Virus record (IMG/VR): IMGVR_UViG_3300024999_000116
Coordinates: 1 to 59,709 of that record
From: a virus
Taxonomy: Duplodnaviria > Caudoviricetes
Strand: one strand, 5' to 3'
DNA length: 59,709 nucleotides
Numbering within the stretch: the first letter of the stretch is position 1; each line of letters begins with the position of its first letter. Below are positions 4,557-44,912 of the stretch, piece by piece. A program made the translations under genes and the position numbers. Below the pieces are notes generated by a model, which saw only the letters and a program-made list of their open reading frames with translations, was not told the origin of the DNA and searched no databases.

Positions 4557-6299
4557 ATGACCGATCAGCAAAAGGAAAAGAAGAAACTATCCGCTCAGAA
4601 ATTAAGGGAAAAAGCGGCAGCAAAAGTTGAATTGGAATATCGTAAATCCGCTAAGAGTGTAGAGTATTTTATAGATAAATACGCCTATATTGAGGATAGG
4701 GACGTTCCCGACTTAGTTGCTAAACTTAATTTATGGGACGGTCAAAAGGAAGCGTTAAGGAAGATTATTGACAGTAAGTTGTCGATTATTCTCAAAGCGC
4801 GGCAGTTAGGTTTTACTTGGCTATCTCTTATTTACGGATTGCACGGGGTTATATTTCGACCCGGTTATTCCGTTGTTGCTCTATCTAAGAGGGAAGAGGA
4901 CGCTAAGGAACTTATTAGGCGTATATGCTTTATCCTTAGATACTTACCTTCATGGATGATTCGTCACGTTAAGGGTACTCCGAAGCAATATCCTAACCCT
5001 ACATGGGATTCAACGGTATTGTCGGTTACTATCTATCATAAAGGAAAAGAACCTGCTGTTTTTAATGCTATGTCTGCCGGTCCTGATAGTGGACGTTCCT
5101 TTACGGCGAATCTTGTAATACTTGATGAATGGGCGTTTCAGATGTTTGCTAGAGATATTTGGTCTGCTGCTTACCCTACTATTAATCGACCTACTGGTGG
5201 ACAGGTTATTGGGCTATCTACCGCTAAAAAAGGTACTTTATTTGAGGAAATATTTTGGAAGGCGTACAACGGCGAGAATACGTTTACGCCTATATTTATG
5301 CCTTGGAGTACCGACCCTAGACGTACTCAGGATTGGTATGAGCAGGTTAAAAAAGACTTACCTCATAGTTATATGGCAGAGTATCCGGCGACTCCAGAAG
5401 AGGCGTTTACTGCCGGTGAAGGTCAGTTCTTTAAAGAGTTTAGGCGTGATGTGCATGTTGTGAAACCGTTTAAGATACCTTCGTGGTGGAAAAGGTTCTG
5501 CTCGTTGGACTATGGACTTGATATGTGTTCATGTCACTGGTGGGCAGTATCGCCGGAAGGTATTATGTACGCTTATCGTGAATTATATCAACCTAATTTA
5601 ACCCTTAGTCAAGCGGCGAAGAAAATTATCTCCATGACACCTAAAGACGAGAAAATTAGTTATACGGTTGCTTCTCCTGACTTGTGGAATAGGCGACAAG
5701 AGACAGGGACAAGCGGTAGAGAAATAATGAATCGTGCCGGACTTAATAACCTCAGAAAAGCAAAGCATGACCGTGTTGCAGGTTGGAGGGCATTAAGGGA
5801 GTATCTGTTAGTTAGAGAGGAAAAGCAGGACGTTATGACCGATGAAGGTATTAATACGGTTACTGTACTCACTTCCAGATTAAAGATATTTGATAACTGT
5901 AAGAATGTTATAAGGTGCCTGCCTCTATTGGAGCATGATAAGAACAATCCAGAAGATGCGGCAGATACGCCACATGAGGTCACACATTCACCGGAAGAAT
6001 GTTTAATTGGAGAAACAATAATAAACACTCCTGATGGTGATTTTACTATTAAGGATTTAGTTGGTAAGTCTGGTAATGTATATTGTTATGACGAGGAAAA
6101 TAAGTGTATGTCAGTATCTACTTTTTCTGATGTAAGGTTAACTAAGGAGAATGTAGATGTATATGAAATAGAGTTATATGACGGAAGAAAGATTGTTGCA
6201 ACCAAAGATCATCCTGTGCTTACTAATAGCGGATGGAAGTTAGTTGGTCAACTTACTGACAATGATTATGTTATCGAGGTGGACTATGAAAGTTGTTAG
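4557..6299 (+). CDS. terL: Terminase large subunit N-terminal part fused to split-intein N-fragment (6000-6296)
   Basis: ILKARQLGFT (Walker A), LVILDEWAF (Walker B), SLDYG nuclease motif, then CLIGETIINTPDG (intein block A) and ATKDHPVLT (block B, TxxH), then a stop. Confidence 0.92.
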   Translation: MTDQQKEKKKLSAQKLREKAAAKVELEYRKSAKSVEYFIDKYAYIEDRDVPDLVAKLNLWDGQKEALRKIIDSKLSIILKARQLGFTWLSLIYGLHGVIFRPGYSVVALSKREEDAKELIRRICFILRYLPSWMIRHVKGTPKQYPNPTWDSTVLSVTIYHKGKEPAVFNAMSAGPDSGRSFTANLVILDEWAFQMFARDIWSAAYPTINRPTGGQVIGLSTAKKGTLFEEIFWKAYNGENTFTPIFMPWSTDPRRTQDWYEQVKKDLPHSYMAEYPATPEEAFTAGEGQFFKEFRRDVHVVKPFKIPSWWKRFCSLDYGLDMCSCHWWAVSPEGIMYAYRELYQPNLTLSQAAKKIISMTPKDEKISYTVASPDLWNRRQETGTSGREIMNRAGLNNLRKAKHDRVAGWRALREYLLVREEKQDVMTDEGINTVTVLTSRLKIFDNCKNVIRCLPLLEHDKNNPEDAADTPHEVTHSPEECLIGETIINTPDGDFTIKDLVGKSGNVYCYDEENKCMSVSTFSDVRLTKENVDVYEIELYDGRKIVATKDHPVLTNSGWKLVGQLTDNDYVIEVDYESC

Positions 6300-6954
6300 G
6301 GAAGTAAAAACAATAACAACTGAATATATAGAGCTTAACGGAATTAAGTTCTATAAGGACGGCAAGGGTTATTGGTTAGGGACTGTTAATAAGAAACCTA
6401 AAAGACTCCATATTTATGTATGGGAATGTGTTAATGGTTCTGTTCCTAAAGGTTACCACATTCACCATGTAGACTTGGATAAGGACAATAACGATATTGA
6501 CAACCTTGTTGCAATGGAAAAGGAAGAACATTTAAGACTTCATGCCTTATTGAATGGTCAAGATGAGGAATATAGGGAAAAGCGCAGGAAGGTATTGTAC
6601 GAAAATAGACACCTTGCGGCAGAGTGGCATGGTTCAGAAGAGGGTAGAGAAACTTCTCGTCGTAATTGGTATAAATCACTTGGTATATACATGGAACAAA
6701 TGATAACTCTTGAATGTGATAATTGCGGTAAAAAATATGAAACAAGTGTTATAAGTAAAAAACATAGTAGATTCTGCGGCAATAAATGCAAGTCAGCATA
6801 CAGAAGAAAGTTAAGACTTGATGATGTGGAAAAAGAATGTTTTGTTTGTGGTAAAAAGTTTTTCTCTAGTAAATATGACAAAGTTAAGACGTGCTCAAAA
6901 GAATGCGGCACTAAGTTGATGCTCCTTAACCGCAATGGTATAAGGAGGTTTTAA
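6286..6954 (+). CDS. Free-standing HNH homing endonuclease with Zn-finger repeats
   Basis: ATG 6286 after GAGGTGG RBS; RLHIYVWE..IHHVDLDKDNNDIDNL..EHLRLH; C-terminal CxxC repeats. Confidence 0.85.
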   Translation: MKVVREVKTITTEYIELNGIKFYKDGKGYWLGTVNKKPKRLHIYVWECVNGSVPKGYHIHHVDLDKDNNDIDNLVAMEKEEHLRLHALLNGQDEEYREKRRKVLYENRHLAAEWHGSEEGRETSRRNWYKSLGIYMEQMITLECDNCGKKYETSVISKKHSRFCGNKCKSAYRRKLRLDDVEKECFVCGKKFFSSKYDKVKTCSKECGTKLMLLNRNGIRRF

Positions 6955-9901: not shown

Positions 9902-11023
9902 TTGATAAAAACTTACAAAGTTAGACTTGAACCGAATAAAGAGCAAGAACAAAAGATGTGGCAATCTGCCGGAACCGCTAGATGGGCGTATAACTGGACG
10001 TTGGGTGTACAACAAGAGAATCGCCAAAACGGCGGTAAGTTTATTCAAGACGGTGAGTTGCGTAAAAGTTTAACTAAGTTAAAGAAAACAGAAGAATTTT
10101 GTTGGCTTAAAAAATACTCTAATAATATTACAAAACAAGCAGTTAAGGATGCTTGCAAAGCATATAAATCATTTTTTAATGGCAATAGTAAATTTCCTAA
10201 ATTTAAGAGTAAAAAGAAAAGCAGGACATCATTCTATCAAGATACATCAAATATTAAAATTAATGAAACTCATGCAAGACTAGAAAAAATAGGATGGGTA
10301 AGGTTAAGCGAAACCAATAGAATACCGCAGGGAAGATACTTTAATCCAAGGGTTACGCATGATGGAATACATTGGTTTATATCTGTTGGCGTAGAGGAAT
10401 TTCCTGTATATCCCGAACTAACCAATGAAAGTATTGGTATTGATGTAGGAATTAAGAGTCTTGCTGTAGTCAGTAACGGAATGATATTTAAAAACATTAA
10501 TAAGTCAGGCAAGGTAAAAAAAATCAAAAAGCGTTTGCGTAGGTTGCAACGTAAATGCTCACGAAAATATTATAAAAATGGAAAGGGTGTAAGTTACGAA
10601 AAGACTAGTAACATTATAAAACTTGAAAAATCAATCTTAAAAATTCACCATAAACTAAAAGACATTAAAACTGATTATATCCATAAAACTACTTCCGAGA
10701 TAGTGAAAACCAAACCTTCAAGGGTAGTTATGGAGGATTTGAATATTACAGGAATGATGAAAAATAAGTATCTATCAAAAGCTATTCAGGAACAAAGTCT
10801 ATATGAATTTCACAGGCAAATGCAGTACAAATGCGAGTGGAACGGTATAGAGTTTGTTGTAGCAGATAGGTTTTTCCCATCATCAAAACTTTGTTCGGAG
10901 TGTGGATATATTCATAGGGAATTAAAATTATCTGATAGGACTTATATCTGTCCTGCTTGTGGTAACAAGATAGATAGGGATTATCAGGCAAGTTTAAACC
11001 TATCTAAATACGAATCAGCATAA
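9902..11023 (+). CDS. tnpB: TnpB RNA-guided endonuclease (IS200/IS605/IS607 superfamily)
   Basis: N-terminal HTH_OrfB; RuvC triad intact (GIDVG, VMEDL, DRDYQAS); CSECG/CPACG zinc finger. Confidence 0.93.
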   Translation: MIKTYKVRLEPNKEQEQKMWQSAGTARWAYNWTLGVQQENRQNGGKFIQDGELRKSLTKLKKTEEFCWLKKYSNNITKQAVKDACKAYKSFFNGNSKFPKFKSKKKSRTSFYQDTSNIKINETHARLEKIGWVRLSETNRIPQGRYFNPRVTHDGIHWFISVGVEEFPVYPELTNESIGIDVGIKSLAVVSNGMIFKNINKSGKVKKIKKRLRRLQRKCSRKYYKNGKGVSYEKTSNIIKLEKSILKIHHKLKDIKTDYIHKTTSEIVKTKPSRVVMEDLNITGMMKNKYLSKAIQEQSLYEFHRQMQYKCEWNGIEFVVADRFFPSSKLCSECGYIHRELKLSDRTYICPACGNKIDRDYQASLNLSKYESA

Positions 11024-13904: not shown

Positions 13905-14726
13905 ATGTTATCTAATTGCCCCGTATGTGGTAAAGAATTCAATGCAGTTGGAGCAGCTAAATATTGTTCCAAGGATTGCAGAATGATTGCTAAGATAAGC
14001 AGGGATGGTCGTCGCAAGACTGATATTTGCCCTAACTGTCTAAAAGAATTTATCGTTTCTAGTAACAGGCAGATATTCTGCTCTAAAGAGTGTTGGACTA
14101 TTGCGAACAGGGATAAAATAAGGGCAAAAACATATAAGGCAGTAATGAAGTATCACGATAAAAAATATTTTAACGGAAATAGGGAAATAGTCTTGGAAAG
14201 AGACGGTCATAAATGTATGAGGTGTGATTCTACTGAAAACATAGGGGTTCATCATATCGACAAGACGGGCAAGAAAGATAACCCTAATCATTCACTAGAC
14301 AACCTGATAACTTTATGTAATAACTGTCATTCGCAGGAACACGTTGAGGAAAAGAAGTTACCGCGAACCGCTTTTATGACTACATGCCAATACTGCGGTA
14401 ATCAGTTTAAAACTACCCCATATAAAATAAAAATAGGTGCAGGTAAATACTGCTCTAAGGAATGTAAGGATGCAGGCATGGTTACGCTGAAGGTTACAGA
14501 AGATTTACACCCAGCAGACAAACCCAATCATTTTATGGTTAGTTGCTGTAATTGCGGAACAAAGTTTTCAGTTCCTCCTAATAGGATTAAAAGAGGTACT
14601 GCACTTTACTGTAGTAGGTCGTGTAGAACTGTAGTTGAAAATAGTAAAAGGGCAGGTAAATACAAAATAAGTAATACTGAAAATATGGGCAAGGGTAGAA
14701 AAATAAATAAACAAGCAACAAACTAG
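13905..14726 (+). CDS. HNH endonuclease with multiple Zn-finger repeats
   Basis: VLERDGHKCMRC..GVHHID..NHSLDNLITLCNNCH; repeated CxxCG..YCSKEC. Confidence 0.85.
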   Translation: MLSNCPVCGKEFNAVGAAKYCSKDCRMIAKISRDGRRKTDICPNCLKEFIVSSNRQIFCSKECWTIANRDKIRAKTYKAVMKYHDKKYFNGNREIVLERDGHKCMRCDSTENIGVHHIDKTGKKDNPNHSLDNLITLCNNCHSQEHVEEKKLPRTAFMTTCQYCGNQFKTTPYKIKIGAGKYCSKECKDAGMVTLKVTEDLHPADKPNHFMVSCCNCGTKFSVPPNRIKRGTALYCSRSCRTVVENSKRAGKYKISNTENMGKGRKINKQATN

Positions 14727-18171: not shown

Positions 18172-19017
18172 ATGAAATTATCTTCATTATGGTCTATGTA
18201 TAAAAAAGATAAGGCAATTGCTGGATACTCAACTCATACACTAAAAGCATATGAACTACAATTCAAGTTGCTCATAAATCATATTGGAGAAGTCGATATT
18301 GATAGCATTGCTTGTGCTCAATTAAAAGACTATTTATATGCAAATATCCACCTTAAGCCTGCTAGTTTGGGGCATAGGGTAAGATTTATGAGGTCATTTT
18401 TTAAATGGGCAAATAGCGAGGGTTATTCTACTAATAATCCGGCGGAAAAAATAAAAGAACCAAAGGTTAAGGATAAAACTCCTAAATATTTATCGGATGA
18501 AGAAGTATCTAAACTTATTAATTCATGCGAAACTCCATTAGAAGAGACAATATTATGGTTTCTATACTCTACCGGTTGTAGAATCGGCGAAATATCAAAA
18601 ATAGATAAATGCGATATAAATTGGGATAATAACTCTATAATAGTTGCAGGAAAGGGAGGTAAGTCGAGGACTGTTTATTTTGATGATAAATGCAAAGACA
18701 TATTAAGTAAATATCTTAATTCCAGAAATGACACAGAACGAGCATTAATATCAACAGAAAGAGTGCCGCATAGAATGAGTGTTGCTCAAATAAGGTGTAT
18801 ATTAAAAAGAATATCTTTACGGTCAGGCATAACTAATAATATATATCCCCACAAACTAAGACACTCATACGCAACACATTTACTTAATAACGGTGCTCCG
18901 ATAGAAGCAATTAGAGAGTTGCTAGGTCATTGCAATATTGATAGCACATTAATTTATGCTAGACTAACGGAGCAGGGCAAGAAGAATATTTACAATAAAT
19001 GCTTTAATAACCACTAA
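18172..19017 (+). CDS. Tyrosine recombinase (XerD-like)
   Basis: TGCRIGE, GKGGK, HKLRH, LLGH, TLIY: complete catalytic set; no arm-binding domain. Confidence 0.92.
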   Translation: MKLSSLWSMYKKDKAIAGYSTHTLKAYELQFKLLINHIGEVDIDSIACAQLKDYLYANIHLKPASLGHRVRFMRSFFKWANSEGYSTNNPAEKIKEPKVKDKTPKYLSDEEVSKLINSCETPLEETILWFLYSTGCRIGEISKIDKCDINWDNNSIIVAGKGGKSRTVYFDDKCKDILSKYLNSRNDTERALISTERVPHRMSVAQIRCILKRISLRSGITNNIYPHKLRHSYATHLLNNGAPIEAIRELLGHCNIDSTLIYARLTEQGKKNIYNKCFNNH

Positions 19018-24607: not shown

Positions 24608-27600
24608 ATGGGTTTTTTTGGAGATTTAGGCGGTAGTAAAAAAGCCAGCAATTCACCTTCCGCAACAAGGTCAAGTAGAGGATTTTTTGATTTTGACGAG
24701 AACGGAAACATTGCAGGACAGGGGCTGGCAGCAATGCCAGTCGCCCCAAAATCTCCTGCAGTTAATAATGATATGGGAAAAAGTGCATATTTTAGACTAG
24801 ATGAAAAATTAGGTGGACGCTTACCTTTTGGTTCGGAAGGACCCTCTTTATCGGATGTTGGTAAAGATATTATAAATCTTCCTAGTATAATAAATAATGC
24901 AGGTAGACAAGCAATGACATTTGGCCAATATAATAAATTCGAGGATTGGCTTGACGAAAAACTAGGTAACACAGGCGCAACGAAAGAAATGAGAGAAAAA
25001 CAAGAACCTAAGTCTTTAGTTGGTGACTTAGGGAATTTAGTCGGTTTTGTTTCCGGTTCAACAATTCCCATTGGTGGCATTGGAAAATTGGTTGATAGGG
25101 GATTAAGACTTGCTCCTGCTACATCAACATTGGGAAAATTGGGCCAAGCGGCATTAAAAAGCGGAACGGCAGGAGGCATTTATGGTGGTACAGAAGCAAC
25201 GCTAAATGGCGAATCTTTGCCTGACATAGCCAAGTTAGCGGCGACAGATGCCGCTATATTTGCAGGTGGTGACGTTGCTCTAAGAGGTGCAGGACAACTA
25301 ATAAGCAAGCTAAGAAAAACGCCGCCACCTGTTGCTGCTCCCAACACGGCAGAATCATTTAGAGAAAAAGTTAGTCGTGATACTGAAAAAAAAGGTACCT
25401 TCTCTGAAAAGGTAGATAAGTTTAATACTCAGTTTATAGACGATTTAGCACCCGCCGAAAAGGTTGAGAAGAATGTTAGGGGCAAGTTGTCTAGTGCAGA
25501 AAATAGCCTTTATAAAACAGCAAGACTATTTAGAGGATCACCTACCAGAGCAAATAATATTATACAGAAGCAACTGAAACCTACAATTGAGAGTATTGAA
25601 AGCCAAGGATTTACTACTTCTGACTTGGGCGACTACGCTTTGGCACATCACGCAAAAGACGTTAATGCCGCAGGAATTAAGTCTGGATTTACGGATGATG
25701 AAATTAATGCAGTTATAACCAAATACGGAACTCCAGAAATGGAGGCGGCGAGACAGGAGTTACTTAAATATAACGACATACTGTTAGACGAACTAGCTAC
25801 AACAGGTGTTATTGATGCAACATTGCCAGCAACACTAAAGGCTAAATGGTCAAACTATATGCCCCTTTTTAGAAGTTTTGACGATAATAAAGTTGACTTT
25901 ACTAATGGTCTAGGAAGTTCACTTGTAAATGCTACTTCGCCAATTAAAAGTTTAAAGGGTTCCAGTAGAAAAGTTATCGACCCATTAGAATCATTAATTA
26001 AAAACACATACCAAAGTATCAATGCCGCAGAGAGAAATAAGGTATCCCTACAAGTAGCAAAACTGGCACTTGATGATACTACCGGAACATTCGTTAAAAG
26101 ATTAGCACCTGGGGCAAATAAAGATAGACTTAATACTGTCTATCTTTTAGAAAACGGTAAAAAGATTTTTTTCGAGGTACAACCTGACGTTTATAAAGCA
26201 CTGAAGTCTCTTGATAAAGAGAGTAGTAACTTTTTAGTTCGACTATTACAGAAACCTGCATCATTATTAAGGGCAGGTGCTACTCTGACACCTGAGTTTA
26301 GTTTTAGAAACCCTGTGCGTGATGTTGTTTCAGCGTTCGTTACTTCTAAATCAGGATTTAACCCTATAACTGATTTTCCGGTTGCTTTTTTTGAGGCACT
26401 AACCAAGGGTAAGGGTATTAATGTTAAAGGAGTTGGAATTGTTAAGCCAAAAGGACTATATGATAATTTTTTAGCCGATAATGGCGGTTATGGCAACATA
26501 CTTTCTATGGATAGAAAACTGCAACAACAGGCACTAAAGGAAATTAGTAAAGGGACGATTAAGGACAAATTCGTCGATATTGCAAGTGGAAAGTCTCTAA
26601 TAAAAGTGCTTAGGGGAATTGCCGATACCACAGAAACAGCAACTAAATTAGGCGAGTATAGGGCGGCACTCAGAAGTGTGGTAAGTAGACCTGAGGCGGC
26701 GTATAGAGCGAGAGACGTTATGGACTTCTCTCGTGCCGGAAGTTCTGTTCGTGAGGCTAATAAAATTGTTGCTTTTCTAAATGCAAACATTCAAGGTAAG
26801 TCGAAACTTATTAGAGCGTTCAAGGAAAATCCAACTGGTTTTACTGCTAAAGCGATAACTTCTATCTCATTGCCAACTGTCGGAGTCTATTTGATGCAGA
26901 AAAATATGGCTAACGATAAGCAGAAGGAATTAATCGCAGATGCCCCCAACTGGCTTAAAAGTAGTTTTTGGCTAATGCCTATACCTGGAACCGATCAGGT
27001 AGCAAGGATACCTAAACCGTTTGACCTAGCACCTGTTTTTGCTAACTCAGTTGAACGGATGATGAAATATGTTGAGGATAACGATCCGGATGCTTTTGAT
27101 GGATATATCAGGGAAACATTCGGAACAATGTCTATACCAACCATGATTACCGGCATAATACCGTTAATTGAGGGTATGGCAAACTATTCATTCTTCCGTC
27201 AAGGACCAATTATACCGCAACGAGAACAGTTTATTAATTTCTCAGACCAGTACGATACTAACACCTCCGAGGTAGCAAAAAAAATAGGAAAAGAAATAGA
27301 CAGTGTGACGGGTGGCGAAGGTACGTTTAAAAACTTCGGTTCCCCACGTATTATTGATAACACTATTCGCGGACTTACTGCTGGACTTGGTTCGCTTGCT
27401 ACCGGCGCAATGGATCAGATACTAGAAAGTACAGGAATGGTTGACGAAAAAAACAAACCAACCAGAAAACCGAGCGAGTTGCCGATAGTTAAAGCATTAT
27501 TGGTTAGCGATACAGGAAGTGGTCAGTCAATGACAGACTTATATAAGTTAAGAGATAAACTTATGCGAGAAAAAGGTTCTGCTGAAATAGGGAAAAACTC

Positions 27601-27799
27601 TTTTAAAGGCAAGGCAGAATTAAGGTTTGTAACGAAGGCAACGGACGATATAGGAAAAATTACTAAGATTATGCGACAAGTTGAAAACAACCCCAAAATC
27701 AATAGTGACATTAAGCGAAAGAGGTTGGACGAATTGAATAAGCGGAGAAATACTATAGCATCAAGTGTAATGGAACGCATTAATTCGGCTAAAAAATAA
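24608..27799 (+). CDS. Large ejection/polyvalent protein with C-terminal LPD38-like domain
   Basis: RNPVRD, DFSRAG..AFLNANIQG, FWLMPIP..RIPKPFDL, NYSFFRQGPIIP. Confidence 0.7.
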   Translation: MGFFGDLGGSKKASNSPSATRSSRGFFDFDENGNIAGQGLAAMPVAPKSPAVNNDMGKSAYFRLDEKLGGRLPFGSEGPSLSDVGKDIINLPSIINNAGRQAMTFGQYNKFEDWLDEKLGNTGATKEMREKQEPKSLVGDLGNLVGFVSGSTIPIGGIGKLVDRGLRLAPATSTLGKLGQAALKSGTAGGIYGGTEATLNGESLPDIAKLAATDAAIFAGGDVALRGAGQLISKLRKTPPPVAAPNTAESFREKVSRDTEKKGTFSEKVDKFNTQFIDDLAPAEKVEKNVRGKLSSAENSLYKTARLFRGSPTRANNIIQKQLKPTIESIESQGFTTSDLGDYALAHHAKDVNAAGIKSGFTDDEINAVITKYGTPEMEAARQELLKYNDILLDELATTGVIDATLPATLKAKWSNYMPLFRSFDDNKVDFTNGLGSSLVNATSPIKSLKGSSRKVIDPLESLIKNTYQSINAAERNKVSLQVAKLALDDTTGTFVKRLAPGANKDRLNTVYLLENGKKIFFEVQPDVYKALKSLDKESSNFLVRLLQKPASLLRAGATLTPEFSFRNPVRDVVSAFVTSKSGFNPITDFPVAFFEALTKGKGINVKGVGIVKPKGLYDNFLADNGGYGNILSMDRKLQQQALKEISKGTIKDKFVDIASGKSLIKVLRGIADTTETATKLGEYRAALRSVVSRPEAAYRARDVMDFSRAGSSVREANKIVAFLNANIQGKSKLIRAFKENPTGFTAKAITSISLPTVGVYLMQKNMANDKQKELIADAPNWLKSSFWLMPIPGTDQVARIPKPFDLAPVFANSVERMMKYVEDNDPDAFDGYIRETFGTMSIPTMITGIIPLIEGMANYSFFRQGPIIPQREQFINFSDQYDTNTSEVAKKIGKEIDSVTGGEGTFKNFGSPRIIDNTIRGLTAGLGSLATGAMDQILESTGMVDEKNKPTRKPSELPIVKALLVSDTGSGQSMTDLYKLRDKLMREKGSAEIGKNSFKGKAELRFVTKATDDIGKITKIMRQVENNPKINSDIKRKRLDELNKRRNTIASSVMERINSAKK

Positions 27800-28029: not shown

Positions 28030-28233
28030 TTAATTTTTATCAACAAACTCCAATATTTCTCCTGGGTTACATTCTAATGCAAAGCATAGACGCTCTATAA
28101 CTTCCAGGGAAACATATTGATTTGTGTTTAATTTGGCCATAGTACCGCCAGATATTTTAGCTTGTTTCATTATATCTTGTTTCTTTATATTTCTATCAAT
28201 CAGTATTTTTTGAAATAGTTTATAACTAACCAT
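28030..28233 (-). CDS. Xre/Cro-C1 HTH regulator (HTH_26-like)
   Basis: MVSYKLFQKILIDR..VSLEVIERLCFALECNPGEILEF. Confidence 0.85.
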   Translation of the reverse strand: MVSYKLFQKILIDRNIKKQDIMKQAKISGGTMAKLNTNQYVSLEVIERLCFALECNPGEILEFVDKN

Positions 28234-28322: not shown

Positions 28323-28350
28323 TTGACTTGTAAATTCAATATGTTATAAT
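28323..28350 (+). promoter_or_regulatory. sigma-A promoter of the RAMP-HNH-array operon
   Basis: TTGACT-16-TATAAT with extended TG. Confidence 0.6.
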
Positions 28351-28390
28351 AATATATAAGATGTTATAGATTGTATATAGGAGGTTGGGC

Positions 28391-29023
28391 ATGGGCAAAA
28401 ACATTTTAACGGCAACAATCGAAATAAAAGGAATTAGACCTCTGTTATGGCATGTATTTGGTCCTGATTCTCTGCCGCTTGAAAAACAGGAGAGGACAGG
28501 AGTTGCCGGACACGATCCGGAGGAATGGCGCAAAACTTATGTAGCAACCAAGAGTGGACAACTATATTTGCCTGGTTCTTATTTTTTCGGAACCTATATT
28601 GCAGGTGCTAAGTTTATTAAGAAGGGTAAGGGTTCAATTCAAAGCATGGTATCAGCAACATTGCAGGTACTCGATGATAAGGTTTTGATTAACAGACACC
28701 TACCGGAAGATATTCACGAAAAACCGCATAAGTATTACAATGCTGACGAAGAATTGGTTTATATTGACGTTCGCTCAGTACGTAATCCGTCAACCAAGGC
28801 AAGAAACATTCGTTATCGCGTTGCAACTTGTCATGGATGGGAATGTAAATTTTCGATAATGTTTGACAAGACGGTTGTTAGTCGCCAGGAAATGCACGCA
28901 GCCATTATTGATGCAGGTAAGTTATCCGGCATTGGTGATGGTCGCTCTGTGGGATACGGAAGGTTTGAAGTGTTATCTTTTGAAATACAGGAGGAAGATA
29001 ATGCCAAGGAAAAGACCTCCTAA
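28391..29023 (+). CDS. Stand-alone Cas7/RAMP-superfamily protein (Vipr-like)
   Basis: ATG 28391 after GGAGG. First strand ATIEIKGIRPLL, LYLPGSYFFG (cf. RAMP YIPGSSxKG), and C-terminal Gly-rich loop GIGDGRSVGYGRFEV. Confidence 0.8.
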   Translation: MGKNILTATIEIKGIRPLLWHVFGPDSLPLEKQERTGVAGHDPEEWRKTYVATKSGQLYLPGSYFFGTYIAGAKFIKKGKGSIQSMVSATLQVLDDKVLINRHLPEDIHEKPHKYYNADEELVYIDVRSVRNPSTKARNIRYRVATCHGWECKFSIMFDKTVVSRQEMHAAIIDAGKLSGIGDGRSVGYGRFEVLSFEIQEEDNAKEKTS

Positions 29024-29291
29024 AGAAATATGGCAAAAGTTAAGGATAATAGTCTGGAATCGTGACGGAGGTAAATGTAAACACTGTCACGAACCAGTTG
29101 ACTTAAATAAATGTCACATAGATCATATTCGTTCTGGTAAACTAGGAACCAATAAACTAAACAATCTTAGAACTCTATGTCGTTGCTGTCATGTTTTGCG
29201 TGATGATGGGCGGCATAGGGGGATGATTAGTAAAGCACTTAAGGATGGTATTATTCCTCCGAATTGGCGGGAGTTAGTTTGGGGTGATTAA
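29001..29291 (+). CDS. HNH endonuclease translationally coupled to the RAMP gene
   Basis: ATG 29001 after AGGAGG; RDGGKCKHC..HIDHI..GTNKLNNLRTLCRCCH. Confidence 0.85.
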   Translation: MPRKRPPKEIWQKLRIIVWNRDGGKCKHCHEPVDLNKCHIDHIRSGKLGTNKLNNLRTLCRCCHVLRDDGRHRGMISKALKDGIIPPNWRELVWGD

Positions 29292-29300
29292 TATATATGC

Positions 29301-29395
29301 GGCGGGGACTGATTTGGAGTGGAGAGATATGTTTAGGTGTGGTGAGTTGGGGACCGGCGTGGTGCGGTTAGGTAGGGCGAGGTAAGATAGGACGA
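29301..29395 (+). repeat. Phased pentamer array 1 (19 units, G(G)H-NN): putative guide RNA
   Basis: ggcgg ggact gattt ggagt ggaga gatat gttta ggtgt ggtga gttgg ggacc ggcgt ggtgc ggtta ggtag ggcga ggtaa gatag gacga; 19/19 start with G, 13/19 with GG. Confidence 0.85.
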
Positions 29396-29397
29396 TA

Positions 29398-29462
29398 TTA
29401 TTGAAACAGGGGTAAAACCCTGTTCGCAGGAGGTGACTGTCCTGCGCTGATGAGATAAGTTA
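29398..29462 (+). ncRNA. Type II hammerhead ribozyme
   Basis: GAAA 29403-06; stem III ACAGGG/CCCUGU; GUU cleavage triplet 29422-24; stem I CGCAGGA/UCCUGCG; CUGAUGA 29447-53; open stem II UUAUU/GAUAA. Confidence 0.85.
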
Positions 29463-29472
29463 AATAATACGA

Positions 29473-29557
29473 GTTTTGGAGTGGAGGGGTCGGGTCCGGA
29501 ATGGAGTGTCCCGGCGGGGATAGGTATGGTGAGGCGGGGTATGTCTAGGCGAGGGTA
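29473..29557 (+). repeat. Phased pentamer array 2 (17 units, G(G)H-NN): putative guide RNA
   Basis: gtttt ggagt ggagg ggtcg ggtcc ggaat ggagt gtccc ggcgg ggata ggtat ggtga ggcgg ggtat gtcta ggcga gggta; 17/17 start with G, 14/17 with GG. Confidence 0.85.
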
Positions 29558-29560
29558 ATA

Positions 29561-29596
29561 AAAAATAACCACATCTTAATCGATGTGGTTATTTTT
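29561..29596. terminator. Bidirectional intrinsic terminator
   Basis: aaaaataaccacatc-ttaatc-gatgtggttattttt, a perfect 15-bp inverted repeat. Confidence 0.85.
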
Positions 29597-29801
29597 CGTC
29601 CGACACGTATTCTAGTAAGTCGCCTGGGTGACATTTAAGGGCAGTACAAATTCTATCTATTACCGACACGTCAATTCTGGTGATGTTTCCGTTATACATT
29701 GCATACAGAGTATTCTTATTAACTCCGCTTAACTCGTGTAGTTTAGGAACTTTCATTCTATCTCTGTCGAACATAATTTTGTCTAAATTAAATTTTATCA
29801 A
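29589..29801 (-). CDS. Xre/Cro-C1 HTH regulator (HTH_26-like)
   Basis: TTG 29801 after GGAGGTG; IKFNLDKIM..RIDVSVIDRICTALKCHPGDLLEY. Confidence 0.85.
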   Translation of the reverse strand: MIKFNLDKIMFDRDRMKVPKLHELSGVNKNTLYAMYNGNITRIDVSVIDRICTALKCHPGDLLEYVSDEK

Positions 29802-29883
29802 CTTCGATACACCTCCATGAAGTATATTATACAACGATGCACAAATAAAAGCAACTGAATTTGATATTTTATACACATAAGTA

Positions 29884-31537: not shown

Positions 31538-32134
31538 GTGGTTGGAGTGCTGATTTCTAATAACGAATTAATTGTTTTAGATCCTGGTCATGGCGGTTCA
31601 GATCCCGGAGCAGTAGGAAATGGTCTATTAGAAAAAAATCTAAACTGGGTAGTTGCCAATAAAATCAAAGAGAAGTTGGCTAAGTATAGCGTTCAAGTCA
31701 TGGTGCTGCAACCGTCCTGTACTAATCCAAGGTCAACGGCATCGGACGAATTAACCATACCTGTCAGAGAAGCAATTAAACTGAAAGCAGACTTCTTCCT
31801 TAGTATCCACACAAATGCCGGCAAGGGAACTGGTTTTGAAAGTTTCGTACACAATAAGGCCAGCAGGATAACTGATTTAATACGTAACATTATTCACGAT
31901 AATACGGCCCCGGTATTTACTAAAAACAATATGCCGGACAGAGGTAAGAAACGTGCCAATTTCTATGTGTTGCGGAAGATGCAGGAGGCAGGGATACCCG
32001 CCATGTTGATTGAAAACGGGTTTATCGACAATAAGAAGGATGCGGAGTTTTTAAAGGATTCGGTATTCCTTAATAAGTTGGCTAACGAGATTGCTTATGG
32101 TATTGTGTTAGCGTTTGATTTGAAGATTCGTTAG
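31538..32134 (+). CDS. N-acetylmuramoyl-L-alanine amidase (Amidase_3 endolysin)
   Basis: LDPGHGGSDPGA..EK, FLSIHTNA, AMLIENGFIDN. Confidence 0.92.
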   Translation: MVGVLISNNELIVLDPGHGGSDPGAVGNGLLEKNLNWVVANKIKEKLAKYSVQVMVLQPSCTNPRSTASDELTIPVREAIKLKADFFLSIHTNAGKGTGFESFVHNKASRITDLIRNIIHDNTAPVFTKNNMPDRGKKRANFYVLRKMQEAGIPAMLIENGFIDNKKDAEFLKDSVFLNKLANEIAYGIVLAFDLKIR

Positions 32135-44206: not shown

Positions 44207-44413
44207 TTATCTCACGGACCCGGCGCAGGCATATTCTTCCCTAGTATCAACCAGAGACGCATCCTGCTTCGTCTGACTATACCTTATTATCTTGTTTACC
44301 TCATTAATTCCTTCATGGGTGATGTTTCGGTCAACGGTGATGTTTTCACCGTCAACTACGCAATGGAAAAAACCTTCATAGTCTGCAACAGCACTTACCC
44401 TAATAGCAACCAT
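44207..44413 (-). CDS. Small SOS-regulated protein (candidate antirepressor)
   Basis: AAGGGGG RBS; LexA box directly upstream. Confidence 0.5.
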   Translation of the reverse strand: MVAIRVSAVADYEGFFHCVVDGENITVDRNITHEGINEVNKIIRYSQTKQDASLVDTREEYACAGSVR

Positions 44414-44423
44414 CCCCCTTTTA

Positions 44424-44510: not shown

Positions 44511-44912
44511 TTACATATTCCTTACTTTAGTGATTGTTTTTAATAATTCTTCGACAATTTCAGGCGGTATTTGGTCAGTGTACGCCTTTTTAGCCAGTAA
44601 CAAATAAGGCAGCGTTTCCTTGTCAAGTAGCATTTGCTTAATTTCTTTAGTTAATACCTCGTTTACTTCCGAAATGTCAAAAACAGTACGAGCGTTTTCT
44701 GAAAAGAAGTACATAGGTGATACATTTAACGCGGTAGCAAGTCTTTCAATAACTTTAATTCCAGGACTTTTACGCTTTCCGCTTTCAATCTCAGCAATTG
44801 TGTTTGTTGATACAGCTTTTGCATCTTCTTTTGTTATGGTTTTTGCCGACAATTCATCCATACTCAAACCTCTGTTGCTTCTTAAACTATACAACTTATC
44901 CTTAATCTCCAC
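44511..44912 (-). CDS. CI-like Xre repressor
   Basis: LYSLRSNRGLSMDELS..IAEIESGKRKSP..LATALNVS; divergent from Cro. Confidence 0.8.
   Translation of the reverse strand: MEIKDKLYSLRSNRGLSMDELSAKTITKEDAKAVSTNTIAEIESGKRKSPGIKVIERLATALNVSPMYFFSENARTVFDISEVNEVLTKEIKQMLLDKETLPYLLLAKKAYTDQIPPEIVEELLKTITKVRNM

Follow-up and report, generated by a model that had tools for sequence, protein, structure and literature searches.

What kind of system is encoded by the short cassette at positions 28323–29596 of the tailed-phage genome IMGVR_UViG_3300024999_000116 (IMG/VR; Duplodnaviria, Caudoviricetes)? This record is a single virus contig of 59,709 bases, which we analyzed in its entirety (hereafter, the window). 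An original prediction, made from the letters alone, had seen in the cassette a transcription unit with its own promoter and terminator, a 210-aa RAMP protein, an overlapping HNH gene and two tracts of five-nucleotide units, and had assigned the whole to VIPR. VIPR systems, as described in a 2026 preprint, consist of a Vipr protein and guide RNAs (vrRNAs) of alternating GGY and NN that skip one target base per unit, the skipped base usually being a codon wobble position (bioRxiv 10.64898/2026.04.26.720920). We find that the locus is a well-supported new example of VIPR, belonging to a clade that has a small HNH nuclease as its partner, and not a new kind of system; its identity as VIPR follows from direct sequence homology, the protein fold, the anatomy of the arrays and conservation across the family. 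That the cassette in its entirety, from promoter to terminator and with its guides, ribozyme and HNH gene, forms a self-contained VIPR system on a phage genome of ~60 kb is in our judgment highly probable. The elements that the original prediction had listed, and the assignment itself, were upheld by the analyses that follow.

The first gene of the cassette, vipr (28391–29023, plus strand), encodes a single-RRM RAMP protein of 210 aa when counted from the ATG at 28391; our open reading frame (ORF) listing starts it at a TTG at 28385, giving 212 aa. Searched alone with phmmer, the 210-aa protein matched one solved chain, PDB 36pp_D, the ‘SUSP1 Vipr protein’ (E = 2.9e-6), and a 32-member family profile matched the same chain at E = 8.4e-9, with positions 10–193 (of 202) aligned against 6–190. 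An AlphaFold (AF2) model (pLDDT 78, pTM 0.76) showed an RRM core, a thumb beta-hairpin at residues ~123–146 and a terminal glycine-rich G-loop at residues 180–191, and the C-terminal stretch of the product reads ...GIGDGRSVGYGRF.... Structure comparison, which the original prediction had named as a check on the RAMP fold, returned a Cas7-like fold, the best Foldseek matches of the model being chains of type III-A Csm and type VII CRISPR complexes (E = 1.5e-9, TM ~0.5), which we take to be Cas7-type backbone subunits. The protein falls in phrog_4652 (E = 4e-14), a PHROG of unknown function, and its family is large, with 1328 proteins at E ≤ 0.001 out of 1445 candidates. Homology identifies the 210-aa protein as a Vipr, a minimal Cas7-like RAMP protein. 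Membership in CRISPR-Cas type III (Csm3/Cas7) was considered and rejected. Profile libraries including PADLOC gave only Cas6 and Csm4 matches to the protein, all of them weak or below threshold, a search of the window with Tandem Repeats Finder turned up nothing like a CRISPR array, and no cas gene was recognized among the 54 window ORFs scanned against PHROGs; the original prediction had likewise recognized no cas1, cas2, cas6 or CRISPR repeats. The resemblance to type III CRISPR is one of fold only.

The cryo-EM preprint on SUSP1 names H17, R138, D177, W178 and R179 as the residues for the G-G-Y triplet and K33 as the contact to the skipped base. We mapped these residues by manual count on the single-sequence and profile alignments to 36pp_D and found equivalents for five of the six in the window protein: H17 corresponds to H21, K33 to R35, R138 to R143, D177 to D183 and R179 to R185. 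Across 32 family members, R143 and R185 are invariant and H21 is nearly so.

Downstream of the genes that encode proteins lie the two tracts, both on the plus strand: vrRNA1 (29301–29395), with 19 units of the form G-[G/A/T]-H-N-N in the G-first phase, and vrRNA2 (29473–29557), with 17 units. Counting bore out the composition given in the original prediction, with G at position 1 in 36/36 units, G at position 2 in 27 (A in 4, T in 5) and all four bases in use at positions 4 and 5; position 3 is T in 17 units, A in 9, C in 9 and G in 1. Runs of this length are exceptional. Elsewhere in the window, on both strands, period-5 G runs reach no more than 8 units, and in 200 whole-window shuffles the longest run averaged 7.1 units with a maximum of 10. 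Shuffles that kept each tract’s own composition reached 19 units in 0/20,000 cases (maximum 17) and 17 units in 0/20,000 cases (maximum 14). The repeat tract itself is unstructured when folded (z = −0.43 for vrRNA1), and folding placed a hairpin behind each of the two tracts. The first two units of vrRNA1 resemble those of the related loci L001 and L006. By homology, the two G-[G]-H-N-N tracts are the guide RNA genes of this Vipr.

At their 3′ ends, many arrays of the clade finish in the near-identical units GGCAA GGCAA GG.TT (L016, L017, L018, L023, L025, L050, L054, L060 and others), a motif that a strict count found in 32/96 arrays, and the window tracts carry GGCGA GGTAA (29376–29385) and GGCGA GGGTA (29548–29557) at their 3′ ends. 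These conserved units, which are unmatched in both of the guide–target pairs described below, look like a fixed 3′ handle and not like part of the guide.

Parts of the stretch were recovered in four sequencing runs, all of them DNA runs from one study, with no RNA run among them. Contigs of several relatives cover vipr and hnh and then the stretch from 29560 onward, and diverge at 29295–29307 into other G-rich pentamer sequence; 29335–29559 is covered by one contig only, identical to the window. This pattern fits guide arrays that vary among co-occurring relatives between conserved flanks, with the proviso that contigs cannot show absence.

The boundaries of the cassette are marked by a promoter-like site and a hairpin. 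The site at 28323–28350 (plus strand) consists of TTGACT, a spacer of 16 nt and TATAAT with an extended TG before it, scores 11/12 in a consensus scan and is predicted from that match to be the cassette promoter. At the other end, 29561–29596, preceded by an A run and followed by a T run, is predicted to form a hairpin of 15 pairs with a U run behind it (−18.5 kcal/mol, z = −7.2, with 0/200 shuffles as stable); it ends the cassette as a terminator hairpin and overlaps the end of a convergent helix-turn-helix (HTH) gene. A consensus terminator scan listed no terminator, this hairpin included.

Between the two tracts lies a type II hammerhead ribozyme (29398–29464, plus strand; Rfam RF02276), of which 29399–29464 aligns to the full Rfam model at 35.8 bits (E = 6.9e-5). 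We also searched with a strict descriptor of our own, for which an element had to have GAAA, hairpins for stems III and I, a cleavage base other than G, CUGANGA and stem II. In the window element this descriptor recovers both core strands, GAAA and CUGAUGA, the stems in type II order (stem III of 6 bp, stem I of 7–8 bp and stem II of 5 bp) and the triplet GUU; the minimum-energy fold shows stems III and I (z = −3.9). From the consensus alignment, self-cleavage would fall between 29424 and 29425, after U29424. Hammerheads flank the arrays in 9 of 80 related loci: the strict descriptor found 17 elements, in the window and in L001, L002, L009, L046, L049, L062, L065, L078 and L079, all of them on the vipr strand and beside arrays, and a relaxed version found 19 plus-strand and 0 minus-strand elements in 659,833 bases. 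Rfam scored the homologous element of L001 at 36.3 bits and seven hammerheads between the arrays of L046 at 45–55 bits. In other members of the clade, a single guide ends in a terminator-like hairpin, and we infer that the ribozyme in the window may let one transcript give two hairpin-tailed guides. A Bacillus genome locus, L057, has two hammerhead-shaped elements after its arrays (5995–6060 and 6190–6238) with UUGACAA and UUGAUAA as cores instead of CUGAUGA; these may be inactive or variant ribozymes.

The accessory (vap-like) gene hnh (29001–29291, plus strand; ATG at 29001, stop at 29291) overlaps the end of vipr by 23 nt and encodes a 96-aa protein that matches Pfam PF01844 at 25.3 bits, above the cut-off of 21.4. 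An alignment of 33 sequences keeps the zinc and catalytic residues, with C26, C29, D41, H42, N51, C60 and H64 invariant and N55 and C63 nearly so, and its C-terminal tail is strongly conserved. The model of the protein is confident (pLDDT 92), and its nearest folds are T4 endonuclease VII, the HNH domains of Cas9 and IscB, and Cas5-HNH Cascade, all of them at weak E values of 3.9e-3 or more; PADLOC returned weak matches to ZorE/PtuB-type HNH proteins. Homology across the clade marks the 96-aa HNH protein as a fixed accessory gene of this Vipr clade.

This clade was delineated by searching the family alignment against viral contigs, which gave 41 loci, and against one genome per species, which gave 39. 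An HNH homologue (37–80% identity) lies downstream of vipr in 39/41 viral and 37/39 genome loci, or 76/80 together, and where the two genes abut, the hnh start often overlaps the vipr end. Three of the four exceptions (L040, L058 and L080) end inside or soon after vipr, and the fourth (L038) has no HNH gene. Arrays downstream of homologues, which the original prediction had proposed to look for, were there too: same-strand period-5 G arrays stand beside vipr in 40/41 viral and 38/39 genome loci (78/80), and arrays of at least 10 units numbered 141 in 81 sources. The repeat reads GG[C/T]NN in most relatives and GT[C/T]NN in three. According to the genome records, the hosts belong to Bacillota, Chloroflexota, Cyanobacteria, Acidobacteriota, Armatimonadota and Chlamydiota. 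Of 28 related viral records, 9 reach a completeness of at least 90%, 6 carry direct terminal repeats and 4 are proviruses by classification. The nuclease-bearing VIPR clade is common on bona fide phage genomes.

Two further arrangements were seen in the clade. On a Robertmurraya chromosome (L064:3–4299, 4992–5995), the cassette stands behind an integrase, two HTH genes and a D5-type primase-helicase, a layout like that of phage satellites. In L024 and L039 (records G021 and G032), a second, distant vipr paralogue with 27–30% identity to the window protein lies ~2.3 kb downstream and has its own downstream array of 17 units.

We searched for targets of the two guides with exact seeds, namely 7- or 8-unit one-skip patterns, in IMG/VR, and with one metagenome scan for vrRNA2 units 1–9. 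The seed of vrRNA2 units 5–12 gave 11 loci, and in five of these viral contigs the match extends over units 1–12 at 23/24 read positions. In these contigs the match lies in frame in a gene for a protein with an LPD38 domain, with the skipped base at the codon wobble position and the peptide FAGRPIVPGYME, and two synonymous wobble differences among the five contigs leave it unchanged. In the complete record G034 (64,923 bases), the site is at 44385–44420 (23/24, whereas 100 shuffles reached 19 at most) and falls within the LPD38 domain of an ORF that is at least 1645 aa long; across the 232 other seed-matched loci, the top 12-unit window scored 21/24 among the matches listed. The LPD38 protein of G034 is homologous to the 1063-aa protein encoded directly upstream of the window cassette (23% identity over 960 aa, E = 5e-42, BLASTP), and the phage’s own homologous site (27191–27229) matches vrRNA2 at 11/24 positions at most. 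G034 is without vipr and is collinear with the window in its portal, head, tail and LPD38 genes. A candidate match thus supports the reading that vrRNA2 (units 1–12, 29473–29532) is aimed at the LPD38 gene of distantly related phages that lack VIPR, and that the phage’s own mismatched copy would be spared.

A second pair came from within the clade. One guide of L017 matches a portal-like ORF of L027 at 26/28 read positions over its first 14 units, in frame and with the wobble base skipped, whereas 400 unit shuffles reached 23 at most and 200 random guides 24; the final four units of the guide, a stretch that the clade conserves, mismatch the L027 portal, and the portal of L017 itself matches the guide at 23/28. 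In a cross-targeting scan of 141 arrays against 0.66 Mb, and against 1.69 Mb with 33 whole viral records among them, only this pair stood out. As candidate matches, those of the L017 guide and the window vrRNA2 both fit the published one-base-skip rule on phage genes, in line with the original assignment, and in both pairs the target is homologous to a gene that flanks the VIPR locus (LPD38 in one, portal in the other). When the portal of L017 (L345:4434–4474) is compared with that of L027 (L027:1083–1135), four of the five read positions at which the L017 portal departs from the L017 guide fall in three consecutive codons, one of which is an arginine switch between CGN and AGR that changes a read position and leaves the protein unchanged.

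The remaining seeds gave no target. For vrRNA1 in IMG/VR, units 8–15 hit 7 loci, units 1–8 hit 7 and units 3–10 hit 16, none of which extends beyond chance, and units 5–12 hit 0. For vrRNA2, units 2–8 hit 78 loci in IMG/VR, none extending beyond chance, units 9–15 hit at least 115, with none beyond chance among the matches listed, and units 1–9 hit 9 loci in the metagenome scan, none beyond chance. The best whole-guide matches of these scans, among the matches listed, were 23/38 for vrRNA1 and 25/34 for vrRNA2. Nor was a self-target found in the 59,709-base genome with skips of 0–3 and windows of 8–14 units, where the best scores (22/38 and 21/34) equaled those of shuffles. For vrRNA1 against its own genome, 197–200 of 200 shuffled versions equaled or beat the guide in windows of 8–14 units; this low self-match may hint at avoidance of self-matches.

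Several observations count against the reading of the cassette as an intact, targeted VIPR system and temper our confidence in it. The repeat is loose, with the second G absent in 9/36 units and a purine at position 3 in 10/36, and the SUSP1 pocket is reported in the cryo-EM preprint to exclude a purine at that position. The residue that stacks on the second G in SUSP1, W178, corresponds to G184 in the window protein. The window hammerhead scores 1.2 bits under the RF02276 gathering score (35.8 vs 37), and Rfam lists no hammerhead for the descriptor element in L009 (E up to 0.1) or in L049, L062, L065, L078 and L079 (E up to 1). Upstream of the first guide, the gap from the hnh stop at 29291 to the first vrRNA1 unit at 29301 holds no ribozyme that could set the 5′ end of vrRNA1. 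No target of vrRNA1 was found in the collections searched. The vrRNA2 match was picked after nine seed scans with about 243 loci; over the whole tract it amounts to 27/34 (79%), units 13–17 matching at only 4/10 positions, and so falls just below the whole-guide threshold of 80% used in bioRxiv 10.64898/2026.04.26.720920. The phages that carry the matched site are no more than remotely related to this one, with 23% identity between the LPD38 proteins. The glycine at the W178 position was also considered as the cause of the loose second G, an idea that we rejected because the relatives that share this G-loop include some in which position 2 is 100% G and others that have GTC units.

We propose the following mechanism for the cassette, the protein–DNA part of which is taken by analogy from the published SUSP1 work. 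A single transcript would carry vipr, hnh and both guides. Cleavage by the hammerhead after U29424 would leave vrRNA1 with a 3′ tail closed off by the stem III hairpin and would free vrRNA2, which would start with the stem I hairpin and have the terminator hairpin as its 3′ tail. Vipr protomers would polymerize along each vrRNA, hold the constant triplet and present the NN pairs, and the resulting filament would read double-stranded DNA in the pattern NN-x-NN-x, passing over one target base for every unit. In this way vrRNA2 would target the LPD38 gene of rivals, the mismatched copy in the phage’s own genome being spared. On target binding, the HNH nuclease would cut the rival DNA, such that this clade may destroy its target as well as silence it. 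The cassette may act in lytic co-infection or from a prophage, the genome encoding an integrase-like protein.

The features that set this locus apart at first sight have precedents. The original prediction had named three features as additions of this locus to VIPR, namely its relaxed triplet, its nuclease and its ribozyme; all three are already present in the VIPR preprints of 2026 (bioRxiv 10.64898/2026.04.26.720920; 10.64898/2026.10.21.760802), and this part of it does not stand. The former divides VIPR into seven types with the repeat variants NNNGG, YNNNG and NNNNG, describes staggered, single-guide and hammerhead-interspersed arrays, and reports predicted nucleases and HNH domains among the accessory genes, with the nuclease-bearing types III and V enriched in defence islands; its figure legends place HNH among the type II, III and VII examples (fig. 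S21) and hammerheads in types I and V (fig. S19). Further non-canonical triplets are reported in the latter. With the nuclease-accessory VIPR types III and V, the window shares a minimal Vipr RAMP protein, a small HNH accessory gene, vrRNAs of the GGY/NN type in one to several guides, hammerheads between guides in some loci and, going by the candidate matches, guides that are directed to viral genes and pass over the wobble base. Compared on the published text, it differs from these types, which are reported as enriched in cellular defence islands, in that the window cassette resides in a phage genome and has 41 relatives on viral contigs.

The type II system of SUSP1 (PDB 36pp; 10.64898/2026.04.26.720927, 10.64898/2026.10.15.759431) has a homologous protein with the contact residues H17, K33, R138, D177 and R179, a guide period of five bases and a phage-borne locus aimed at competing mobile elements, all of which have counterparts here, for the residues by alignment and for the aim as a candidate. 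The two also differ. The accessory protein is an HNH nuclease in the window and the DNA-binding Vap1 in SUSP1; the guide tail would be a plain hairpin in the one, formed by stem III of the ribozyme or by the terminator, and is a pseudoknot in the other; the window has a looser triplet and a glycine in place of the aromatic W178; and its candidate target is the gene of a large virion-associated protein of other phages, whereas SUSP1 targets a satellite.

Likenesses also extend beyond VIPR. The RAMP fold, thumb and G-loop are shared with the backbones of Class 1 CRISPR systems (Cas7/Csm3), and with HNH-fused Cascades (Cas5-HNH and type I-E HNH) the window would share a guide-loaded RAMP filament paired with an HNH nuclease. 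Unlike Class 1 CRISPR, however, the window has no CRISPR array, no cas1, cas2 or cas6 and no spacer–repeat organization, and its HNH is a separate 96-aa protein; the VIPR footprint is five bases, three held and two read, whereas that of Class 1 CRISPR is six with one flipped. The ribozyme has the topology and core of the clustered type II hammerheads of phages and prophages (RF02276), which likewise lie between units of a polycistronic phage transcript. It differs from them in its place between two guide RNAs, the upstream one of which would take stem III as its 3′ tail.

The surroundings of the cassette bear on when it would act. PHROG scans of the 54 ORFs outline a tailed-phage gene order on the plus strand, with small and large terminase, portal, head and tail genes, an endolysin gene (31538–32134) that comes after a 3-kb block behind the 1063-aa gene, and recombination and replication genes (SbcC-like, RecT-like, DnaD-like and DnaB-like). 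The VIPR cassette falls in this block, with the 1063-aa gene on one side and the lysis genes on the other. The former gene (24608–27799, plus strand) lies directly upstream of the cassette and encodes the large LPD38-domain protein discussed above (Pfam PF18857 LPD38, E = 4.6e-33). Two Cro/C1-type HTH genes on the minus strand flank the cassette, one (28030–28233; Pfam HTH_26, E = 3.1e-18) divergent from the cassette promoter and the other (29589–29876; HTH_26, E = 1.4e-17) convergent with the cassette, and their proteins share 35% identity. The upstream gene is a possible regulator of the cassette. We considered and rejected the HTH genes as components of the VIPR family, because the downstream one, of which a 66%-identical copy stands beside the VIPR cassette of L001/L002, is otherwise confined to weak matches in two other loci; the upstream one has a single weak match, in L001/L002. 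A near-identity search with 20 kb of the window against an annotated phage collection gave no match; elsewhere, a Vipr protein of 97% identity and a cassette of 87% identity exist.

From this setting arises the most serious competing view of the cassette, namely that it works for the lysogen, as a prophage moron with its own promoter that excludes superinfecting phages, rather than as a weapon of lytic co-infection. We regard it as a possibility to be taken seriously, if one that we do not favor. The strong promoter-like site and terminator, the two opposite-strand HTH flanking genes and the position between virion and lysis genes are as expected of such an element, and the phage encodes an integrase-like protein (18172–19017, phrog_1, E = 3.8e-57) and a repressor-like gene. 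Five cellular loci of the clade, moreover, lie in integrative islands among integrases, D5-type primase, HsdM, reverse transcriptase, MazE and transposases, and the enrichment of nuclease-bearing types in defence islands (bioRxiv 10.64898/2026.04.26.720920) points the same way. The composition of the 28 related viral records argues in the other direction, only 4 being proviruses, compared with the 9 that are at least 90% complete and the 6 with direct terminal repeats. The two uses are in any case not mutually exclusive.

A more speculative view of the nuclease-bearing cassette is that HNH-clade VIPR is the RNA-guided counterpart of a free-standing homing endonuclease, in the manner of marker exclusion. 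The idea arises because the cassette adjoins its own mismatched allele of the gene that its guide reads in rivals; if it is true, cutting the rival allele in co-infection would favor inheritance of the cassette together with the linked resistant allele. The words ‘homing’ and ‘allele’ do not occur in the main text of the discovery and competition preprints on VIPR. Family-wide, guides that near-match their own flanking genes were seen in only 2/74 arrays that beat all 100 shuffles, where ~0.7 were expected, and because this test revealed no general tendency of guides to near-match their own flanks, we keep the idea as a long shot.

Alternatively, the HNH gene could itself be a free-standing homing endonuclease that rides beside vipr, or a packaging protein, in which case VIPR would only silence transcription. 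The same phage has at least four other HNH genes scattered among its packaging and head genes, and the characterized SUSP1 system (type II) represses without cutting (bioRxiv 10.64898/2026.04.26.720920). This is nevertheless unlikely, given that a homologue lies downstream of vipr in 76/80 loci from many phyla, often with overlapping starts, and that the catalytic and zinc residues and the C-terminal tail are conserved. We know of no selfish endonuclease that keeps such a fixed linkage.

That the locus is a decaying, non-functional copy, as the loss of the second G in 9/36 units, the hammerhead under its gathering score and the unmatched vrRNA1 might suggest, is very improbable in view of the two intact ORFs with their family-invariant residues, the intact hammerhead core and three stems, the 97%-identical protein and 87%-identical cassette found elsewhere, a repeat degeneracy within the range of the clade (G at position 2 is 62–69% in L046, L019 and L030) and the near-perfect 12-unit match of vrRNA2.

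The reading of the locus as a nuclease-bearing VIPR system makes it useful for a branch that, to our knowledge, nobody has yet characterized at the bench. It is a well-documented phage-borne example of that branch and offers a testable guide–target pair, vrRNA2 against the LPD38 gene of defined contigs, with the phage’s own allele as a built-in negative control; the predicted ribozyme cut would define the guide ends. With these in hand, it can be asked whether the Vipr filament recruits or licenses the HNH nuclease, and whether the target is destroyed or only silenced. What the locus adds beyond print is modest, namely a candidate guide–target pair, targets that are homologues of flanking genes, and a nuclease-bearing clade that is common on phage genomes. 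The picture drawn by the preprints of 2026 would stay unchanged.

Other mobile genes are found elsewhere in the window. The integrase-like gene, a tyrosine recombinase, lies in the middle of the virion block, away from the genome ends and from the repressor-like gene (44511–44912). Four free-standing HNH endonuclease genes are interspersed in the packaging and head genes (475–963, 2467–2922, 6244–6954 and 13905–14726), and a transposase gene (9902–11023; phrog_506, E = 1.7e-116) sits between the portal and head genes, making the structural module of this phage one that is heavily colonized by selfish elements.

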